DNA of 64,000 bases, taken from the sequence record OR352958.1, one strand, 5' to 3'. Each line of letters opens with the position of its first letter. Positions within the stretch are counted from its first letter, which is position 1. The position numbers were made by a program, and so were the translations under genes. The notes beneath the pieces are model-generated. The model was not told the DNA's origin, made no database searches, and saw only the letters and a program-made list of their open reading frames with translations. The stretch is from Escherichia phage AV128. Below, one piece after another: positions 3,579-32,346 of this stretch.

Positions 3579-3842
3579 ATGAACACGCTTATTCTCATCG
3601 CTACGTTGTCCATCGGAAGTGGTCGCGCCTTATCCCTTTATGACCATAGTGCAAATTGCGCTTACCCAACGCGCGTTGCGGCGATAGTTAATAGTGCAAA
3701 TCGAATGCTATTTGAGACTTGTTGGCGGGTAGATAACGAGAAAGGGCGCATCGTCTTAGGTTATAGTGCAAATCTGCTGGTGGAGTCGTTCGATTGGACG
3801 GCGGAAGGTCGTAAATTGTTACGTAAAGTGACTAAAAGATGA
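3579..3842 (+). CDS. doubtful ORF (87 aa) lying over the motif array
   Basis: ATG with GGTGG upstream, but three motif copies fall in-frame (each read as Ser-Ala-Asn); may be non-coding. Confidence 0.2.
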   Translation: MNTLILIATLSIGSGRALSLYDHSANCAYPTRVAAIVNSANRMLFETCWRVDNEKGRIVLGYSANLLVESFDWTAEGRKLLRKVTKR

Positions 3843-17719: not shown

Positions 17720-18046
17720 ATGAACGAAAAAGAGACGAAGCAACGCGAACGTGCAACACACGTCGGAATCGTTGAGTCCTTCCTTAATACAAGATTGAAT
17801 TCAAGCCTAACAATCATGCGATTCCTGGGTCAACCAGACAGAATCAAATTTATTTTTGCCGCAAATCCGGTATCGCTGTACATCCCTGTTGAATCCATGG
17901 CGTACTTAGTGCGCGACGAGAAAGGATGGAAGATACCAAACACAACTGTTTTCTTCAGCCATGTTGATGGTGAGATGTTTGAACGAAAAGAAGATTGCCA
18001 TTTTATTCCAGTATATCTGGACCTTGAAAGCGTAGTGGAGTTATAA
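17720..18046 (+). CDS. hypothetical protein (108 aa)
   Basis: track ORF; stop overlaps helicase start. Confidence 0.5.
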   Translation: MNEKETKQRERATHVGIVESFLNTRLNSSLTIMRFLGQPDRIKFIFAANPVSLYIPVESMAYLVRDEKGWKIPNTTVFFSHVDGEMFERKEDCHFIPVYLDLESVVEL

Positions 18047-19230
18047 TGAACATTCCAGAATTTAATGATGAGCCAGTGATTCAGTTTAACGCGCAACAAA
18101 TCGATGCCATCGAGAAGGCCGTTGCATGGTACAAGCGATTGCAGGACGGTAAAACGACGAAGCGTGTGTTTTTCATTGCTGGCTATGCAGGGACTGGTAA
18201 AACCTCTATTGCTCGCGAGATTGTGCGCCGCTGTGTCGGTGAGTACGGCGCTATCTATATTGCGCCGACCGGAAAGGCTGCAAGCCGATTAAAGCAAAAA
18301 GGCTGTCGTGGCGCTAAGACCCTTCACCAGTTCATCTATAACGTGCGCGGCGTAAATGACGACAATGAGCCAATCTTTTCGAGAAAGTCAAAGCTGGATG
18401 AAAGGCCGCACCTTGTTGTACTCGATGAAGCGTCGATGGTTGGCGAGTGGGACACAGAGCGTCTTCTTGATCACCGCATCCCTGTGCTGGCATTAGGCGA
18501 CATTGGACAAGTCCCTCCGGTAAAAGCCGCCGCCTACTTTACTGAAGAAGCTGTTGACGTTCTGTTAACAGAAATCATGCGGCAGGGGAAAGAGTCCAAC
18601 ATCATCCGTGCCTCCTTCTTCGTGCGCCAAGGCAACCGCCTTCCTCCGCGTGAATACGATGACGTCAAAGTATTGGCAGAATCGCCGCGCGTTACTGCGT
18701 TGAAGAAATTCATGGGCGAAGATGATCAAATTATTTGCTCCTATAATAGCACCAAAGACAAATGGAATTCATTATTACGGCAAGTGAGCGGACGTATAAC
18801 GCCAATGCCAGGAATCGGCGAGAAGGTTATTTGCACCTTCAACCAACACGGCCCAGGATTCTGTAATGGCGAGCAAGGGATTGTTATTAGCTATGAGCCA
18901 GTGCCGGACTTTGAAAGGGACGAAGACGAGTCCAATGAAATCATGTATGTCAATTTGCGCTCGCTTACCGATGGCAAAGATATAAAGGTTAAGATTAATC
19001 CTCTTTCCTTCTCTACTGATCAGGAAGTGCGCAAAGAGGCCCAACGCGCTGTTGGAGGCATGGACTATGGCTATGTCATCACGGTGCACAAATCGCAAGG
19101 CAGCGAGTGGGACAATGTGTGCGTGCTGGAAGAAATCCTGCGCGGCGTTCCGTACTCCAAGATGATGTACACCGCTATCACCCGTGCTAAGAAGAATCTG
19201 ACCGTGTACCGTGATTTGAAAGCGCGTTAA
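18046..19230 (+). CDS. SF1 DNA helicase, Dda/RecD-like
   Basis: Walker A AGYAGTGKTS; C-terminal VHKSQGSEWDNV. Confidence 0.7.
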   Translation: MNIPEFNDEPVIQFNAQQIDAIEKAVAWYKRLQDGKTTKRVFFIAGYAGTGKTSIAREIVRRCVGEYGAIYIAPTGKAASRLKQKGCRGAKTLHQFIYNVRGVNDDNEPIFSRKSKLDERPHLVVLDEASMVGEWDTERLLDHRIPVLALGDIGQVPPVKAAAYFTEEAVDVLLTEIMRQGKESNIIRASFFVRQGNRLPPREYDDVKVLAESPRVTALKKFMGEDDQIICSYNSTKDKWNSLLRQVSGRITPMPGIGEKVICTFNQHGPGFCNGEQGIVISYEPVPDFERDEDESNEIMYVNLRSLTDGKDIKVKINPLSFSTDQEVRKEAQRAVGGMDYGYVITVHKSQGSEWDNVCVLEEILRGVPYSKMMYTAITRAKKNLTVYRDLKAR

Positions 19231-19389
19231 TGTTGACGTAAATTTACGAAAAATAAAACTGAAAATCAGTTTAATTAAAGTGGCATTGCCGCCATAGTTT
19301 TTAGTTGCTACTGGCGGCGACTGAAGGCATAATTAAGTTATCCCAAACGGGGAATATAAAATAAACTAATTTATTTAAGGACTGTGAAT

Positions 19390-20229
19390 ATGGCCGAAGC
19401 AATCAAAGTATTATCTAAAGAAGAAAAACAAGCAGCCGCAGCAGAACGTCGTCGCGTGGCTGAAGAAAAACGCCTGGCTAAAAAGAAAGAAGCCGAAGAA
19501 AAACGCCAGAAGCGTGAGCAGGAAAAACAAGCCAAGCGTGAAGAAGCCGCGCTGAAGCGCAAACAGGCTGCTGATGAGAAGGCTCAGAAGCGTGCTGAAG
19601 AAGCAGCTAAGAAAGCTAAAGAGCGTGCAGAAAAGGCTGCTGCTAAGAAAGCAGAGCGTGAAGCCGCTAAAGCAGCAAAAGAAATCGAAAAGGCAAAGGC
19701 CAAAGAAGAAGCCAAGCGCCTGAAAGCTGAACAAGCTGCTGCTAAGAAAGCAGAGCGTGATCAAGCCCGTGCTGCAGCAAAGGCCGAAAAAGAGAAGGCT
19801 AAAGAAGAAGCGAAAGCGAAACGCAAGGCAGAGCGTGAAGCTGCTAAGATCGCGGCGAAAGAAGCTGCAGAACAGCAAAAAGAACAGCGTAAGAAAGAAG
19901 CTGAAGAACGTCGCAAAGCCATCGCAGAGCGCAAGGCTGCCAAAAAGGCAAACGGTCAGCGCCGTGCAAAAGCTACTCACTTCATCTACACTGGCAACGG
20001 CCTGAGCCAGCCGCAGGAGCACTCCACCCGTGGGCGCGTTCTGGCGGCGATCAAAGAAGGCGAAGTTGGCGTGGCGCAGTCTATCGATGAGCTGGGCGAG
20101 AAAGTTAAAGATCAACTGTTTGGCGCTTCCGTTCGCTCCTACCTGAGCAAGCTGGAAGAGATGGGCCACATCGAGTTTGTCGATGTTGAATCCAACGACG
20201 ATGCCGAAGACGGTGATCAAGCGGAATAA
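19390..20229 (+). CDS. K/A/E-rich coiled-coil protein with globular C-terminal domain
   Basis: about 190 aa of Lys/Ala/Glu/Arg low-complexity repeats, then a ~90-aa conventional domain; track start 19384 is GTG, ATG at 19390 has TAAGGA upstream. Confidence 0.55.
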   Translation: MAEAIKVLSKEEKQAAAAERRRVAEEKRLAKKKEAEEKRQKREQEKQAKREEAALKRKQAADEKAQKRAEEAAKKAKERAEKAAAKKAEREAAKAAKEIEKAKAKEEAKRLKAEQAAAKKAERDQARAAAKAEKEKAKEEAKAKRKAEREAAKIAAKEAAEQQKEQRKKEAEERRKAIAERKAAKKANGQRRAKATHFIYTGNGLSQPQEHSTRGRVLAAIKEGEVGVAQSIDELGEKVKDQLFGASVRSYLSKLEEMGHIEFVDVESNDDAEDGDQAE

Positions 20230-20257: not shown

Positions 20258-20286
20258 GACCCACACTTGTTGTGGGTCTTTTTTCG
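20258..20286 (+). terminator. intrinsic terminator
   Basis: GACCCACA-CTTGT-TGTGGGTC followed by TTTTTTCG. Confidence 0.65.
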
Positions 20287-20310
20287 TCTGTACTAAATAG
20301 AAATGACTTG

Positions 20311-20363: not shown

Positions 20364-21359
20364 ATGAACATGAAACAACCTGTAATGATTATCGGCGGCG
20401 GTTTGGCAGGACTTATTACCGCGTGTCACTTCCCGAACTCTATTGTGTACGAAGCAGGGGAACGAGCGCAACAGCACAAGGCGCTGCTACGCTTTCGCGG
20501 CGAAGAAGTAAGCCGTATTACCGGAATCCCTTTTAAGGCCGTGACAGTTGACAAGGCTGTGTATTTTCGCGGCAACTACTACCACGACCATTGCCCAATC
20601 AACCTTGCCAATATGTATTCCATGAAGGTCACCAATCAGTTTGGCAGCCGTTCAATCATGAAGCTTAAAACTGCAACGCGTTATATTGCGCCTGATGACT
20701 TTTATGATCAGCTTGTCGACAAACTGGGTGACCGCATATTCTTTAATACTCCGGTAGATACTCTTTGCGGCTATAGCGAGACGCCAATCATCAACACGTC
20801 GCCGCTGCCAGTCATGATGAAGCTGGCTGGGATTGATCAAAAGCTTGATTTCTCATTCGATAAAGCAAACATTCGTGTTTACCGCTTTAAGATTAAACGT
20901 AAGTGTGATTTGTATCAGACAATTTACTTCCCTGACTACTCCGTCAGAACTTATCGCGCATCAATTACTGGTGACACGCTTATCATTGAAACAATTCCTT
21001 TGGTCAGCGTGAGTGAAGCTGCAGTTGAAGCCGCTGGCGGCATCACTCGTTACCGTGACATGAAGCTGCGCGCAGAAGTCGACGAAGTGTTGACAGCCTT
21101 TGGCCTCTCATGGAGTGACATTGCTCTTGAAGAAGTTGAAAAGGTCGACCAGAAATATGGCAAGATTGTCGACATTCCGAAAGACTTGCGACACGCCCTA
21201 CTCCTGCAGCTGACTATGGATTTGAACGTGTTCAGTGTCGGTCGATTTGCTACCTGGCGCAACATTTTGCTTGATGACGTTGCCCATGACCTTGTTGAAG
21301 TTGAAAAACTCATCAAAGCAAATAACTATCAAAAATTTGCTTATATTGCTAATAAATAA
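20364..21359 (+). CDS. FAD/NAD(P)-binding Rossmann-fold oxidoreductase-like protein
   Basis: N-terminal MIIGGGLAGL dinucleotide-binding motif; family not resolved. Confidence 0.45.
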   Translation: MNMKQPVMIIGGGLAGLITACHFPNSIVYEAGERAQQHKALLRFRGEEVSRITGIPFKAVTVDKAVYFRGNYYHDHCPINLANMYSMKVTNQFGSRSIMKLKTATRYIAPDDFYDQLVDKLGDRIFFNTPVDTLCGYSETPIINTSPLPVMMKLAGIDQKLDFSFDKANIRVYRFKIKRKCDLYQTIYFPDYSVRTYRASITGDTLIIETIPLVSVSEAAVEAAGGITRYRDMKLRAEVDEVLTAFGLSWSDIALEEVEKVDQKYGKIVDIPKDLRHALLLQLTMDLNVFSVGRFATWRNILLDDVAHDLVEVEKLIKANNYQKFAYIANK

Positions 21360-21424
21360 TTTGCTTTCTGCTTCAATGGGCGTATACTTTAATCATTGAA
21401 GCAGAACTCATAGAGGAAACGAAA

Positions 21425-21871
21425 ATGAAACGAATCACTGGAATCGCGCTTGCCGCTACTGCTATTCTCGGCACCATGTATATGGAAGCGACTGAAGCTG
21501 CCATCCGCACTTCCGATTCAGTCGCTGTTTACGATTGCGAAGCGATGGACGGTAAGACCGCAGCAACGACTGGTGCGAAGATTACCACTTACATCGGTGT
21601 GAATGAGCAAGAAGGTCTGAATATTCAGATTCAGGGATTCACAGGGAAAGGTGCCAACCGTACTCCGTGGATGCAACGTTTCACTTTCGTCCAGCCTCGT
21701 TCAACTGGCGGCTTTATCAATCTGATTGGTGAAAACCGTTCTGGTGCAGAAATCTTTACATCAATGAGTTCTAATAATGAACCAAAGAAAAGTTTTCAGT
21801 TGCTTTATAACGCACAATTCGTTTATCATTGCACCTTCTCTGGTGATCAGCAACTAGTGAATTACCGTTAA
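21425..21871 (+). CDS. secreted/periplasmic protein (148 aa)
   Basis: N-terminal signal-peptide-like hydrophobic stretch ITGIALAATAILG; two Cys. Confidence 0.5.
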   Translation: MKRITGIALAATAILGTMYMEATEAAIRTSDSVAVYDCEAMDGKTAATTGAKITTYIGVNEQEGLNIQIQGFTGKGANRTPWMQRFTFVQPRSTGGFINLIGENRSGAEIFTSMSSNNEPKKSFQLLYNAQFVYHCTFSGDQQLVNYR

Positions 21872-21884
21872 TAGGACAATTAAA

Positions 21885-22688
21885 ATGAAAGTTGAATTAA
21901 TTCGATACACCCAAGATGCACTTGACCTTTTGCTGGAAACAAAGAACACGCGCATGACTGGTAAGCCTGTCTCTGAGATGACGGAATCAGAGAAGCAAGA
22001 GCATTGGCGCTACATGCTTGATACAATCAAGTCTCCTTTTGACTTTGTGGACTATATCTTTGATATCACAGCTGTATCAAAGAACATGACCCATCAGATG
22101 GTACGCACACGCACAGGCGCATATCAAGAACGCACCAGCCGCGCTCAGGAGTCGTCTGCATTTGATGCGATTCGTCCTGCTAAATTCACTTACCCAGAGG
22201 ATGATCCAAAGGGATGGACTCGCCATGACGAGAAGGCCGCTGAACTGGCAGAGAAGTGGGATGATGCGATGGCGACTATCGATGCTTTGTATCAAGAGCT
22301 TCGCGCGGCTGGCGCAGAGATTCAAGATGCACGTGCCGTATTGCCTTCTAATATGCAAACGCATATCATGGCAAAGTTCAACTTGCGCACGCTGCAGCAG
22401 ATGGCGTCAAACCGCTTGTGCACGCGCACGCAAGGAGAGTATCAAGAAGTATTCCGCGCAATGGTTGCGGAAGTCCTCAAGGTGCACCCTTGGGCGAATC
22501 CATTACTGCAGCCGCAATGCATTGGTATGGGTAAGTGCGCATTTCCTCGTCACGGTAAAGCCCATTGCCCTTGGTATCGTGATTGGATGGATACCACGGC
22601 ACAGCAAGAAGAGTTGCGCATCCAGTTTTGGAGTGCGATGCCAATCACCAACAATCCAGTTGCTAAAGATGGAGTATCAAAAGGATGA
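21885..22688 (+). CDS. thyX: ThyX-like flavin-dependent thymidylate-synthase-family protein (divergent)
   Basis: THQMVRTRTGAYQERTSR resembles the ThyX HQxVRHR...S region but reads RTR; ARAVLPSNMQT...NxR matches the ThyX C-terminal block; extra Cys-rich tail. Confidence 0.5.
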   Translation: MKVELIRYTQDALDLLLETKNTRMTGKPVSEMTESEKQEHWRYMLDTIKSPFDFVDYIFDITAVSKNMTHQMVRTRTGAYQERTSRAQESSAFDAIRPAKFTYPEDDPKGWTRHDEKAAELAEKWDDAMATIDALYQELRAAGAEIQDARAVLPSNMQTHIMAKFNLRTLQQMASNRLCTRTQGEYQEVFRAMVAEVLKVHPWANPLLQPQCIGMGKCAFPRHGKAHCPWYRDWMDTTAQQEELRIQFWSAMPITNNPVAKDGVSKG

Positions 22689-23557
22689 GCATTAAAAACA
22701 GCGAAATCTTAAACGTATTCGACCTTGACGGAACGCTGTTTGATGACCGTTGGCGCTTAGACCGCATCAAGGTGGCAGGTCCGTTGTCAGACTATGATGA
22801 TTATCACAGCGGTATTGGTTATGATCAGTTCTATCCTCACATTGCATCAGCAGTAGAGTCGGCATCTCTTCGCGGTGAGGCGGTTGAATATTGGACTGCA
22901 AGGCCAGAAAAATACAGACAAGTGACTTTTGAACGTCTGGACAATGTTTTTCCTTTTGATGAATTTACAATCAAGATGAGAGACTATGGCGACAAACGTC
23001 CATCAACTATTATGAAATCTGCATGGCTATCGCACGCATTGCGGCACGGCGATTATCGAATCATCAATGTATTCGACGACCGACAAGACGTACTCGCGCG
23101 GATGCAAGATGAAGCATTGTATTATAATTCCGTTGCTCAAAATAAAATCTCTTTTACATTTAATCTTTGCAAGGCAGGTGAAGTGGTGCAACAATTAGCA
23201 ATTGATCCAAGCGCAACAGGGCAAGAAGAGACTAAGGCTGTGGAAGTTGAACAATCTCCGGCAACTGCCGCCGATATTCTTGATGCAATGGCAGCAACCT
23301 TCCGTGAGCGCAACGCTGTCTATGGCGATAACGCTGTGATGGTAGGTCAGGTTATGCAAGTGCTTTTCCCTAATGGCGTGACGTTGAAAACGCCGGAAGA
23401 CTACCACATGTGGCATCTGTTCGAACTTAAGATTGTCAAGCTTACACGCTTCGCAATCAGCGGCCTGAAGCACGAAGACTCTATACACGATGATGGTGTT
23501 TACAGCGCCATGTGTGAACGTCTTGTTAACACCCATAATATTAATTTCAATAAATAG
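22685..23557 (+). CDS. HAD-superfamily phosphatase fused to an uncharacterised C-terminal domain
   Basis: FDLDGTLFD motif I near N-terminus; NVFDDRQD later; C-terminal ~100 aa unassigned. Confidence 0.45.
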   Translation: MSIKNSEILNVFDLDGTLFDDRWRLDRIKVAGPLSDYDDYHSGIGYDQFYPHIASAVESASLRGEAVEYWTARPEKYRQVTFERLDNVFPFDEFTIKMRDYGDKRPSTIMKSAWLSHALRHGDYRIINVFDDRQDVLARMQDEALYYNSVAQNKISFTFNLCKAGEVVQQLAIDPSATGQEETKAVEVEQSPATAADILDAMAATFRERNAVYGDNAVMVGQVMQVLFPNGVTLKTPEDYHMWHLFELKIVKLTRFAISGLKHEDSIHDDGVYSAMCERLVNTHNINFNK

Positions 23558-23622
23558 TTTACTTGTGCGTTTCGATGAGTTATATTTATCTCATCGAAAC
23601 GAAGTCCAAAAAGGATAAATAA

Positions 23623-24306
23623 ATGAAAAAAGTAATTGTTGTAACTGGCTGCAATTCCGGTCTTGGTAAATCCATTTTTGACACCCTTGGCGCTTACGGT
23701 CATGAAGTTGTCGGTATTGATTTGGAGAACGGCTATGACATCCGTAACGCGAAACAGATGAAAGAGCTTCTCTCTCAATACGACGTAGAAGGCTTGATCA
23801 ACTGCGCTGGCGTCAACTCCAACAACTGGTTCGAAGATGTTAACTACGAAGAGTTCAATCGCGTTATGCACACCAACGCCTTCTCTTTCGTCAACACGAC
23901 TCAGGCCGCGCTGAAAAGTCTTATTGACAACAAAGGTTTTGTGATCAACATCGTTTCCAACGCTGCGCATATTCCTATGACGTCCAGCTTGTGTTATAAT
24001 GCTTCCAAGGCTGCTGCGCTCATGATTAGCAAGCAGATGGCTCACGAGCTTACGCCTAAATACGGGATCACGGTATTCTCTATTAGTCCTAACAAGCTAC
24101 GTGGTACTGGCATGTCCAAACAGATTGAAGATGCTGTTTGCGCGACTCGCGGCTGGACTCCTGAGTATGCTGCTGAATACCAGAAAAAGGCGTTGATGAA
24201 TGGATTGGAGACTGAGCCGCAAGTAATTGCTGACTTCATTCGACATATCTTAATTACGGGCGCATGGCGCTTTATGTCTGGCACTGATATTCCATTTGGT
24301 AAATAA
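23623..24306 (+). CDS. short-chain dehydrogenase/reductase (SDR)
   Basis: VTGCNSGLGK cofactor-binding motif and YNASK catalytic motif. Confidence 0.65.
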   Translation: MKKVIVVTGCNSGLGKSIFDTLGAYGHEVVGIDLENGYDIRNAKQMKELLSQYDVEGLINCAGVNSNNWFEDVNYEEFNRVMHTNAFSFVNTTQAALKSLIDNKGFVINIVSNAAHIPMTSSLCYNASKAAALMISKQMAHELTPKYGITVFSISPNKLRGTGMSKQIEDAVCATRGWTPEYAAEYQKKALMNGLETEPQVIADFIRHILITGAWRFMSGTDIPFGK

Positions 24307-31485: not shown

Positions 31486-32346
31486 ATGTCTAAGAAAGAA
31501 ACTACCGAAGTTGCAGCGAAAAACACCCAGATGTCCGCTATGGCTGATTTTGTCGACATGACCGATTTTGGCGCTGGTTTTGAAGGTGCCGATGCCGATG
31601 CGTATGCCATTCCTTTTATCGTCGTCCTGCAGAAGATGTCTCCTATGGTCGACGAAGATGATCCAAAACACGTTCCTGGTGCAAAAGCTGGCATGCTTTA
31701 CAACACCGTAACGGGTGAGTTGTACGACGGAAAGAAAGGCGTTCAGATCATTCCTTGCGCATTCAAACGCACCTTCATCCTTTGGGGCGGTCGCGAATCC
31801 GATGATAAAGGCTTCAAAGGTGAATTTACTAAAGAGCATGTTGACGCAGAAGTCGCGGCAGGCCGCGCTGTTGAAATCAACGGTAAGGTCTTTGTGCCGG
31901 ACGAAAATGGCAAGGTGCACGAGAAGAAATCACCTTACTACGCTGATACGCGCAACCACTTTGTGATCCTTTTGAACGAAGAAACAGGCGAATTTGGCAG
32001 CGCCATGCTTTCCCTGACTTCTTCAATGATCAAGCCGTCTCGCATGCTGATGACCGCGCTTCAGCAGAAGAAAGTTCAGACTCCACAAGGTCTGAAAACG
32101 CCGCCGACCTTTATGAACATTGTTCGCATGGGCACTGCATCTCAGTCCAAAGACGGCAACACCTGGTCAGTTCTTAAGTTTGAGCTGGAAGGTCTGGTGC
32201 AGGATAAAGGTCTGTACGAAGTCGCTAAAGCATTCCACAACGACGTAGTTGGCGGCAACGTTAACATTGACCGCAGCAAGCAGGAAGAAGCAAGCGGTGC
32301 CGCTGGTCCTGTCAATGAAACTCCTACCGACGCAGAAGAGTTTTAA
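31486..32346 (+). CDS. putative single-stranded DNA-binding protein, T7 gp2.5-like
   Basis: acidic C-terminal tail ending in Phe (TDAEEF), as in gp2.5-type SSBs; by-eye only. Confidence 0.4.
   Translation: MSKKETTEVAAKNTQMSAMADFVDMTDFGAGFEGADADAYAIPFIVVLQKMSPMVDEDDPKHVPGAKAGMLYNTVTGELYDGKKGVQIIPCAFKRTFILWGGRESDDKGFKGEFTKEHVDAEVAAGRAVEINGKVFVPDENGKVHEKKSPYYADTRNHFVILLNEETGEFGSAMLSLTSSMIKPSRMLMTALQQKKVQTPQGLKTPPTFMNIVRMGTASQSKDGNTWSVLKFELEGLVQDKGLYEVAKAFHNDVVGGNVNIDRSKQEEASGAAGPVNETPTDAEEF

Follow-up and report, generated by a model that had tools for sequence, protein, structure and literature searches.

A long charged helix joined to a winged helix in PB1-like phages: a candidate DNA-associated protein encoded beside a Dda-like helicase

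The gene and its neighbourhood

An open reading frame on the + strand at 19390-20229 had been flagged in the window, that is, in the whole stretch of 64,000 nucleotides that was analysed. It corresponds to the CDS Bas98_0054 of PQ850608.1 (Escherichia phage HermannAdler, Wifcevirus). The genes and signals at the locus are as follows, with the basis of each given in brackets.

18046..19230, + strand: gene for a Dda/RecD-like SF1B helicase, the invariant upstream neighbour (Pfam AAA_30, UvrD_C_2 and PIF1; annotated as a Dda-like helicase)
19280..19295, + strand: terminator-like hairpin 3' of the helicase gene (consensus scan; a pattern match only)
19305..19333, + strand: sigma-70-like promoter candidate, TTGCTA, 17-nt spacer, CATAAT (consensus scan, 9 of 12 matches; pattern only)
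19377..19381, + strand: Shine-Dalgarno sequence AAGGA, 8 nt 5' of the ATG (reading of the sequence)
19390..20229, + strand: CDS Bas98_0054, 279 amino acids (ORF list, GenBank annotation, PHROG 4765, codon-position-3 variation)
19411..20220, - strand: antisense open reading frame of 269 amino acids, an artefact of codon composition (ORF list; substitution pattern in relatives)
20258..20288, + strand: intrinsic terminator, an 8-bp stem with 5 G-C pairs followed by a T run (scan)

The frame opens with an ATG at 19390 and closes with a stop ending at 20229, and comparison with relatives bears out the original prediction that it is a coding gene. The PHROG 4765 profile covers residues 1-279 of the product (E = 2.4e-84). 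Among the wifcevirus relatives, 69 of the 78 variable sites of the + frame fall at codon position 3; in the low-complexity part, seven wifceviruses show 16-23 synonymous versus 0-1 non-synonymous differences and no indels. Bas98_0054 is under strong purifying selection. The long frame on the opposite strand had been regarded as an artefact, and rightly so: read in that frame, the differences are 20-41 non-synonymous versus 2-5 synonymous, and the frame contains a stop in phage Mansfield. Mostly non-synonymous change, together with this stop, rules it out as a true gene.

Bas98_0054 is a monocistronic gene with its own promoter-like site, ribosome-binding site and strong terminator. The record of Mansfield annotates a ribosome-binding site at the position equivalent to the AAGGA of 19377..19381, and a terminator matching that at 20258..20288 is annotated in WFC, WFH and Mansfield.

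Judged by homology searches, the family is a hallmark of the PB1-like myoviruses (Wifcevirus, Pbunavirus and relatives), apparently found only there. A word-indexed homology search returned four proteins when queried with the C-terminal domain and eight when queried with the full-length protein. Since an exhaustive HMMER search yields just 26 clusters at 50% identity, we consider the family narrow. The motif RS[FY]LSKLEE was sought in 185,579 genomes of bacteria and archaea and no relative turned up; at that sensitivity, therefore, the family has no homologue in cells or prophages. A Dda-like helicase gene stands directly upstream of the homologue in all 29 viral loci that include upstream sequence, and the same gene order recurs in Pbuna-, Bcepfuna- and Carpasinavirus and in an Aeromonas phage.

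The orthologues include E217 gp68, 14-1 ORF66, KPP12 ORF65, vB_Eco4M-7_83 and ECML-117 gp81, the last of these named 'TolA protein'. Members of PHROG 4765 share the full-length architecture, a conserved C-terminal domain and the place after the Dda helicase gene; the sequence and length of their helix diverge by genus, and some carry an extra His-rich N-terminus, but none is different in kind. We also considered whether the homologue might be the END-nuclease inhibitor of pbunaviruses; this is excluded, because that inhibitor is 14-1 gp88.

The long helix and its internal duplication

The N-terminal two thirds of the gene contain a long helix-coding segment and, within it, an internal duplication.

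19417..19953, + strand: one long alpha-helix of about 27 nm, spanning residues 10-188, whose 11-residue repeats carry a stripe of Lys/Arg (AlphaFold2 and periodicity)
19627..19715, + strand: duplication copy 1, with the exact 26-mer at 19636-19661 (repeat search, shuffles)
19726..19814, + strand: duplication copy 2, with the exact 26-mer at 19735-19760 (repeat search, shuffles)

The protein had been described as a helical region of some 190 residues rich in Lys, Ala, Glu and Arg, followed by a globular C-terminal part of about 90 amino acids, and both composition and predicted structure agree with this division. Residues 1-190 comprise 30% Ala, 24% Lys, 20.5% Glu and 10.5% Arg, with a net charge of +25, and in the AlphaFold2 model residues 10-188 form an unbroken helix at pLDDT above 90. 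The same description used the term coiled coil, which we abandon. The heptad (3.5) period is absent from the helix (z = -0.8 for A/I/L/V/M and 0.1 for K/R), and Ile, Leu, Val and Met together make up about 6% of it, in no consistent phase; the AlphaFold2 model, moreover, is a single helix. The missing 3.5 periodicity of hydrophobic residues rules out a heptad coiled coil.

The period that does appear is one of charge. Basic residues recur every 3.67 residues (11/3), with z = 15-16 depending on the width of the segment, and Asp and Glu are likewise periodic (z = 8.5). The best K/R period lies at 3.63-3.71 in 20 of 22 database homologues, with z up to 32, and at 3.67-3.70 in 25 of 28 viral loci. 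On the predicted helix, the 11/3 period gives a straight stripe of Lys and Arg that is conserved across the family. The acidic residues point on average some 180 degrees away from this stripe, i.e. they occupy the opposite face; across 15 family members the angle between the mean directions of the two classes is 169-221 degrees. Pairs of Lys to Glu at i,i+4 are more frequent than expected (23 observed versus 14.2), whereas pairs of Glu to Lys at that spacing are not enriched. Depending on the genus, the helix is about 35 to about 270 residues long. Outside Bas98 its net charge is only +2 to +10, with acidic residues at 18-28%; true histone-H1 tails are not of this kind, which counts against the DNA-coating role proposed below.

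An 11-residue (3-11 helix) period is the hallmark of membrane- or lipid-binding amphipathic helices of the apolipoprotein, alpha-synuclein, perilipin and group-3 LEA type, and it is very strong here; group-3 LEA repeats also have a K/A/E-rich composition resembling that of the phage helix. We nevertheless regard a lipid-binding protein of this type as very improbable. The helix has no hydrophobic face, given its small content of aliphatic residues and a weak Ala phase in Bas98 (R = 0.03); the Pfam LEA_4 and apolipoprotein families are unmatched even at E ≤ 10; and the hydropathy of the protein, taken over 19 residues, peaks at 0.61.

At the DNA level, as the original prediction stated, the 26-mer GCTGCTGCTAAGAAAGCAGAGCGTGA has exactly two copies in the window, the second in frame with the first at a distance of 99 bp. 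This spacing equals 33 codons, or three 11-residue units, and the similarity between the copies extends beyond the exact 26-mer to 89 nt at 74% identity. The longest exact repeat had a mean of 12.8 nt and a maximum of 22 in 2000 codon shuffles, and a mean of 13.9 nt and a maximum of 25 in 2000 synonymous shuffles that preserve the protein. Since no shuffle of either kind reached 26 nt, the repeat is more than chance, and we conclude that it is what remains of an internal duplication of 33 codons (3 x 11).

This repeat had further been thought to allow expansion or contraction. In its strongest form, the idea would make the gene a contingency locus, in which in-frame DNA repeats drive frequent changes in repeat number and so tune the length of the helix between isolates. 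The non-random 26-mer is compatible with such a locus, as are the differences in helix length between genera and the 33-bp tandem array of 4.3-4.7 copies in phage 14-1. Among wifceviruses, however, length does not vary: all seven extracted CDSs are 840 nt long, and with a 1201-nt query, flanks included, the match extends over 1199-1202 nt in 28 records. In TH35 and WFC the exact identity of the 26-mer has been lost through synonymous changes only, at constant length, so that the repeat decays without any change in size. Changes by 33-bp units are seen only between genera, and the window itself holds two copies 99 bp apart rather than a tandem array. Expansion or contraction between isolates thus finds no place in our account, and we think a contingency locus extremely unlikely.

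The C-terminal domain and the name TolA

Three features follow the helix.

19960..19977, + strand: conserved basic linker RRAKAT (alignments A1 and A2)
19978..20181, + strand: winged-helix domain, residues 197-264, in the order strand, H1, strand, H2, H3, strand
20182..20226, + strand: acidic disordered C-terminal tail, VDVESNDDAEDGDQAE (charge profile, pLDDT below 50)

The last 89 residues have an ordinary composition, a net charge of -8 and an acidic end; the homologues likewise bear acidic tails, of 10-60 residues. In the linker, R192 is invariant and R191 and T196 are nearly so. The domain that follows has the winged-helix topology, H1-strand-H2-H3-strand (wing), and by its predicted structure is a winged helix of a previously unclassified subfamily, without a close structural relative. 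Assignment to a known structural family, which had been named as an outcome that would count against the original prediction, thus holds at the level of the fold and goes no closer.

Pfam searches with the full protein and with the C-terminal domain gave nothing meaningful, and the 26 family members, each searched individually, produced sub-threshold matches only. Sequence searches of the PDB, with the single sequence and with a profile, found no significant match, the top profile match being the nucleoid-associated protein YejK at a sub-threshold E = 0.17. Foldseek returned nothing below E = 0.5 from the PDB and only the protein's own family from BFVD. The structural neighbours include the protein-binding winged helices of RPA32C, ScpB, Scc1 and Stn1.

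The pattern of conservation nonetheless bears on function. Two residues, R249 and K254, never vary in the alignment of 26 sequences, S250 and S253 are invariant in an alignment of 11, and helix 3 carries all four on the same face; basic residues occupy four of the seven invariant positions (R192, R214, R249 and K254). The invariant residues of helix 3 are suggestive of nucleic acid binding through helix 3 and the wing, which we treat as a candidate activity only, the slightly acidic core of the winged helix and the net charge of -8 of the C-terminal part counting against it.

The original prediction likened the protein to TolA, and several GenBank records name it 'TolA protein'. In composition the likeness stands, as domain II of TolA is also a long helical region rich in Ala, Lys and Glu; in homology, membrane anchor, C-terminal domain and charge periodicity it does not. 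BLASTP with composition adjustment against E. coli TolA gives E = 0.17, and PF06519, which E. coli TolA matches at 2e-38, is not matched by the phage protein even at E ≤ 10. The phage protein has neither a transmembrane segment nor a signal peptide, its maximum 19-residue Kyte-Doolittle hydropathy standing at the value given above, whereas E. coli TolA reaches 2.45 at its residues 14-32. Domain II of E. coli TolA lacks the 3.67 periodicity (z = 0.1) that is so marked in the phage helix, the phage C-terminal domain is a winged helix rather than the fold of TolA domain III, and the phage gene lies outside any tolQRA context. The database label is thus an artefact of low complexity. Homology being already refuted, we give practically no credence to a TolA homologue or an envelope-acting mimic of the sort that the name implies.

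A candidate role and its closest analogues

The codon usage of the gene bears on how much of the protein is made. Bas98_0054 ranks first among the 61 open reading frames of the window in bias towards host-preferred codons (0.71, versus 0.69 for the major head protein): all 25 of its Arg codons are CGY, and nine of its ten Leu codons are CTG. By this measure its expression looks as high as that of the major capsid gene, although the figure comes from a protein with few types of residue, which counts against reading it as abundance.

The orthologue in vB_Eco4M-7, vB_Eco4M-7_83, was detected by mass spectrometry in CsCl-purified phage with 7 peptides and a score of 1198, comparable to the portal protein, and CsCl-purified virions of ECML-117 gave 2 peptides (PMC7048862). 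The protein might accordingly be a DNA-bound component of the virion interior, packaged with the genome and entering the cell, where it could, for example, protect or organise the incoming DNA. Records from several Pbunavirus, Carpasinavirus and Erwinia phages do label the homologue 'putative structural protein'. DNA-free ghosts of the pbunavirus SCUT-S1, prepared with LiCl and DNase, lack its presumed orthologue, which we take from gene order to be ORF69; this fits a protein lost together with the DNA, but equally fits one that is not in the virion (PMC6521218). Against packaging, other proteins of the replication module, namely a helicase, a reductase, a member of the glyoxalase family and a protein of 31.2 kDa, were also present in the preparations of vB_Eco4M-7 and ECML-117 (PMC7048862), so that carry-over of abundant proteins is likely. 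The gene, moreover, belongs to the replication block, away from the structural one. The label 'structural' has no traceable origin: the original 14-1 record reads 'hypothetical protein', and in the KPP12 paper N-terminal sequencing identified only ORF22, 23 and 30. Taking these points together, we consider a virion-internal protein unlikely.

A second alternative gives the protein no direct role on DNA. The helix of about 27 nm would act as a rigid spacer, either a single-alpha-helix ruler or a charge zipper, while the winged helix and tail attach to another protein, for instance the Dda helicase, components of the replisome or the neighbouring thymidine-hypermodification enzymes. The invariant synteny with the helicase gene agrees with such an adaptor, although conserved gene order by itself does not show interaction, and the structural neighbours of the winged helix named above bind proteins. 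The excess of Lys-to-Glu pairs and the absence of a hydrophobic seam are as found in ER/K single alpha-helices, and the opposed basic and acidic faces could zip helices side by side. A pure spacer, however, needs neither a phase-locked basic stripe conserved across genera nor the near-zero non-synonymous change of the low-complexity part, and the wide range of helix lengths between genera is odd for a ruler. This too we rate as a doubtful alternative.

The charged helix of 11-residue repeats, the winged helix and the acidic tail, taken together, suggest that the protein is probably DNA-coating. Our preferred reading, held tentatively and at somewhat less than an even chance, is that Bas98_0054 is an abundant DNA-associated architectural protein. 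It would be made in large amounts during infection and would bind phage DNA, with the winged helix serving as an anchor and the basic stripe offering an extended, sequence-independent surface for polyanions. The result would be an architectural coat on the DNA, for which linker histones and the nucleoid-associated proteins of bacteria are loose analogues. The protein would act together with the Dda helicase encoded next to it and with the module for DNA metabolism or modification. Its acidic tail might fold back on the basic surface, or might recruit partners, as in SSB, gp32 and HMGB1.

A bolder version, which is possible but on the whole improbable, is that PB1-like phages encode a linker-histone-like chromatin protein. 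Its winged helix would anchor the pre-formed 27-nm helix so that the straight Lys/Arg stripe runs along phage DNA. Since sugar-type hypermodified thymidines have recently been shown in Pbunavirus DNA, the DNA that is bound may itself be hypermodified. The protein would coat or bridge this DNA, either to organise very fast replication and packaging or to shield it from host nucleases; it might perhaps be packaged with the genome. If this is right, viruses would have a class of DNA-architectural protein that had not been described before, with an 11-residue charge repeat as its basis. More generally, if phage DNA is organised or protected by such a protein, it would represent a new type of viral nucleoid protein, with relevance to phage engineering and to resistance against host nucleases. 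Among the phages of Pseudomonas, pbunaviruses belong to those most often used in therapy, and wifceviruses reportedly replicate unusually fast; the homologue of Bas98_0054 is a conserved core gene of both groups, often mislabelled 'TolA protein' or 'structural protein'. The present analysis removes the false link to TolA and yields a testable model of a DNA-coating protein whose gene is linked to that of the Dda helicase and to a module probably concerned with DNA hypermodification.

It remains to place the protein among known systems. The best profile matches, still sub-threshold, are to NA37/YejK, and they fall on the H1-strand-H2 portion of the domain: Pfam NA37 (PF04245) weakly matches three of the 26 family members, with a best E of 0.005, and hhalign against YejK gives a probability of 34%. 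Weak as they are, these matches lean towards the DNA-associated reading.

KfrA of IncP plasmids consists of a winged helix-turn-helix and a long Ala-rich helical tail, which is heptad-based and dimeric. Like the phage protein, it joins a winged helix of DNA-binding type to a very long helix of Ala and charged residues, and its gene is carried by a mobile element, close to functions in replication or partition. The order of the domains is reversed in the phage protein, however, which also has no Pfam KfrA_N match and no heptad signal.

The ER/K single-alpha-helix domains of myosin VI, myosin X and caldesmon, which are monomeric in solution, resemble the phage helix in being long, seamless and rich in Glu, Lys and Arg, with an excess of oppositely charged i,i+4 pairs that in the phage helix is confined to those running from Lys to Glu. 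The phage helix differs in being 30% Ala and net positive, and in carrying its charges in opposite 11/3 stripes rather than interleaved.

A last comparison is with linker histones H1 and H5 and with the Lys/Ala-rich H1-like proteins of bacteria, AlgP, Hc1 and the tail of PhaF. Foldseek comparison with H1 globular domains gives weak matches only (E about 2-6), and Pfam Linker_histone is unmatched at E ≤ 10. The basic segment of the phage protein is N-terminal and predicted to be a pre-formed helix, without Pro and with an 11-residue charge pattern, and it contains 22% Asp and Glu, whereas the Lys-rich tail of H1 is almost acid-free. What the phage protein has in common with these proteins is the combination of a winged-helix globular domain with a long Lys/Ala-rich segment of net positive charge.

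The gene and its expression

The window amounts essentially to the genome of the Wifcevirus Escherichia phage HermannAdler_Bas98 (PQ850608.1), in which the ORF studied here is annotated as CDS Bas98_0054, 'hypothetical protein'. The 1.2-kb region around it matches PQ850608.1 at 99.9% and 27 other wifcevirus records at 95.5-97.8%; orthologues in other records are named 'TolA protein' or 'putative TolA protein'. The protein family is PHROG 4765, uncharacterised, and our literature searches turned up no study of its function. Two overlapping frames must be distinguished:

19390-20229, +, Bas98_0054 CDS, from ORF and annotation, as originally described
19411-20220, -, antisense ORF, an artefact by substitution pattern and a stop in phage Mansfield

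In all seven wifcevirus orthologues extracted for comparison the CDS is exactly 840 nt long, and 69 of the 78 variable sites fall at codon position 3. Relative to Bas98, the low-complexity part shows 16-23 synonymous and 0-1 non-synonymous differences; when the substitutions are reread in the antisense frame, 20-41 are non-synonymous versus 2-5 synonymous, and in Mansfield a stop interrupts that frame. Thus, the plus-strand ORF is the gene and the antisense ORF is rejected, in agreement with the original prediction, and within the genus even the 'low-complexity' sequence evolves under strong purifying selection. Mass spectrometry has detected the orthologues vB_Eco4M-7_83 (7 peptides, 25.8% coverage, score 1198) and ECML-117 gp81 (2 peptides; PMC7048862). 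Bas98_0054 is a real and constrained gene.

When the window's non-overlapping ORFs of 120 codons or more (61 in total) are compared, Bas98_0054 ranks first by its fraction of E. coli-preferred codons (0.71), with the major head protein gene just below (0.69) and the tail sheath gene well below (0.62). All 25 of its arginine codons are CGT or CGC, and 9 of its 10 leucine codons are CTG. This codon bias points to very high expression, with the caveat that it is measured on a protein of few residue types.

By host-preferred codons, the third-ranking of the 61 ORFs encodes a 286-aa protein (31486-32346, +; PHROG 2402, Pfam Pam3_Gp34-like). This protein, perhaps the 31.2-kDa 'unknown protein' seen by mass spectrometry in vB_Eco4M-7 and ECML-117 (PMC7048862), could be another abundant non-structural one.

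The charged helix and its 11-residue units

Residues 1-190 consist of 30% Ala, 24% Lys, 20.5% Glu and 10.5% Arg, with a net charge of +25, which bears out the Lys/Ala/Glu-rich composition first described for some 190 residues. AlphaFold2, run without an alignment, models residues 10-188 as one unbroken helix (pLDDT >90), about 27 nm long at 0.15 nm per residue. The label 'coiled coil' does not hold for it: Fourier analysis gives no heptad signal at period 3.5 (z = -0.8 for A/I/L/V/M, 0.1 for K/R), and since Ile, Leu, Val and Met total about 6%, without consistent phase, the helix has no hydrophobic seam. Lys and Arg recur every 11/3 = 3.67 residues (z = 16; 15 on a slightly wider segment), and therefore form a nearly straight basic stripe along the helix. 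Asp and Glu share the period (z = 8.5), and in 15 members their mean direction lies 169-221 degrees from the basic stripe, the acidic side being more diffuse. Despite sequence divergence, 20 of 22 database homologues have their best period at 3.63-3.71 (z up to 32), and the same period recurs in 25 of 28 IMG/VR loci. This conserved stripe has apparently not been described previously for PHROG 4765. The helix might also be read as a lipid-binding 11-mer helix, but such a helix requires a hydrophobic face, which is absent here.

Many homologues, including the metagenomic P0008-P0010, P0012, P0015, P0024 and P0025, carry before the charged helix a His-rich N-terminus (e.g. MSHGHHHHTQDAGHTHG), which is absent from the Bas98 protein and may serve as an extension for metal binding or pH sensing.

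The suggested resemblance to the helical domain of TolA is refuted as homology. E. coli TolA matches the Bas98 protein at E = 0.17; TolA contains PF06519 (2e-38) and a transmembrane segment (hydropathy 2.45), whereas the Bas98 protein has neither (maximum hydropathy 0.61), and TolA domain II lacks the 3.67-residue periodicity. Judged from these comparisons, the database name 'TolA protein' is a low-complexity artefact.

The 26-mer first described does occur exactly twice in the window, in frame, at 19636-19661 and 19735-19760, with similarity around the copies reaching 89 nt at 74% identity. Over 2000 codon shuffles the mean length of the longest exact repeat was 12.8 nt, and over 2000 synonymous shuffles with the protein fixed it was 13.9 nt (maximum 25). 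Because neither set ever reached 26 nt, the 26-mer is no by-product of low complexity. Tandem Repeats Finder showed no real tandem array in the window gene. The copies lie 99 bp apart, that is, 33 codons or three 11-residue units. In the Pbunavirus 14-1 orthologue, ORF66, a 33-bp (11-codon) unit is repeated in tandem 4.3-4.7 times (positions 3683-3839 of the locus L003), so the family helix grows by 11-residue units; its length ranges from about 35 to about 270 residues across genera. From the spacing, the array and these lengths, we conclude that duplication of 11-codon units drives family evolution over long time scales, and that the 26-mer is a relic of one such event.

The repeat had also been thought to allow expansion or contraction, as in a contingency locus whose repeats drive length change between isolates. 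Comparison of related isolates does not support this reading. The seven CDSs are constant in length, the 28 matching records cover 1199-1202 nt of a 1201-nt query that takes in flanking intergenic sequence, and in TH35 and WFC synonymous changes have broken the exact identity of the second copy at unchanged length; hence, within the genus, nothing indicates expansion or contraction.

The C-terminal domain

The last 89 residues are ordinary in composition (net charge -8, terminating in VDVESNDDAEDGDQAE), as expected of the conventional C-terminal part of about 90 residues. The model from an 11-sequence alignment (pLDDT about 90) runs strand, H1, strand, H2, H3, strand, a predicted winged helix. 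Foldseek found no PDB relative at E <0.5, and its BFVD search returned the family alone; thus, the domain has no close solved relative. Assignment to a known structural family, which would have counted against the original prediction, therefore extends to the fold and stops there. The best PDB profile match, nucleoid-associated protein YejK (E = 0.17), an hhalign comparison with YejK (34% probability) and contact with Pfam NA37 by 3 of 26 family members are all below threshold, weak hints in line with the DNA-associated role proposed below.

R192, Q209, S212, R214, G227, R249 and K254 are invariant in the 26-sequence alignment, as are S250 and S253 in the 11-sequence alignment. Their i, i+1, i+4, i+5 spacing would place R249, S250, S253 and K254 on one face of helix 3, the usual recognition helix of a winged helix. 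An acidic low-complexity tail ends all homologues.

Distribution, neighbourhood and possible function

By tblastn the C-terminal domain occurs in 356 phage records: 293 Pseudomonas phages (mostly Pbunavirus), 28 wifcevirus records, and phages of Serratia, Burkholderia, Xanthomonas, Pantoea, Erwinia and Aeromonas. When 1.8 billion representatives were searched exhaustively with HMMER, only 26 clusters emerged, and no member turned up among 185,579 scanned genomes of bacteria and archaea. Complete IMG/VR contigs containing the gene measure 64-73 kb. The gene is tied to a Dda/RecD-like SF1B helicase gene, which lies upstream in all 29 loci with upstream sequence (a gap of about 116-176 nt in most) and also in E217, 14-1, BcepF1, XcP1 and Gekk3-15. 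Downstream there usually follow genes for a UDP-galactopyranose-mutase-like FAD protein, a ThyX-family protein, a PNKP-phosphatase-like protein and a short-chain reductase. In the window, Bas98_0054 is served by a promoter-like site of its own, a good RBS and a strong intrinsic terminator, and directly 3' of the gene lies

20364-24306, +, four-gene block: FAD protein, ThyX-family, PNKP-phosphatase-like, short-chain (FabG-like) reductase

whose FAD protein is linked to UDP-galactopyranose mutase by HHpred, according to the Mansfield annotation. Pbunavirus DNA contains sugar-type hypermodified thymidines in TG motifs, with genes yet unassigned (2025 preprint PMC12191111), and wifceviruses are reported to resist restriction (BASEL paper PMC11990801). 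The block is a plausible candidate for a thymidine-modification pathway. Inside the nucleotide-metabolism block, a 148-aa ORF (21425-21871, +) has a signal-peptide-like N-terminus, MKRITGIALAATAILGTMYMEA, and no PHROG match at E <= 1e-5.

In the Bas98 protein a long helix with a basic stripe is joined to a winged helix and an acidic tail. Binding to a polyanion would best explain why the Lys/Arg stripe is straight and conserved and why the invariant residues of the winged helix are mostly basic; in a replication/DNA-metabolism block, that polyanion would most simply be DNA. For this reason we tentatively favour an abundant DNA-associated architectural protein, a reading we hold at somewhat under even odds. 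The protein could alternatively be DNA-bound inside the virion, as its detection in CsCl-purified virions (PMC7048862) and the 'structural protein' labels on orthologues would suggest, but other replication-module proteins co-purified in the same samples (PMC7048862). The presumed orthologue, its ORF assignment being inferred, is missing from DNA-free ghosts of Pbunavirus SCUT-S1 (PMC6521218), which fits a virion-internal location or its opposite. Alternatively, the helix could serve as a rigid spacer or adaptor, in which case the winged helix would bind a protein.

As a core gene of therapeutically used phages, the PHROG 4765 gene offers a solid lead open to testing. The proposed DNA-associated architectural role bears a loose likeness to that of a linker histone or nucleoid-associated protein; the elements themselves, a winged helix and a charged helix, are known, and are here combined in a new way.
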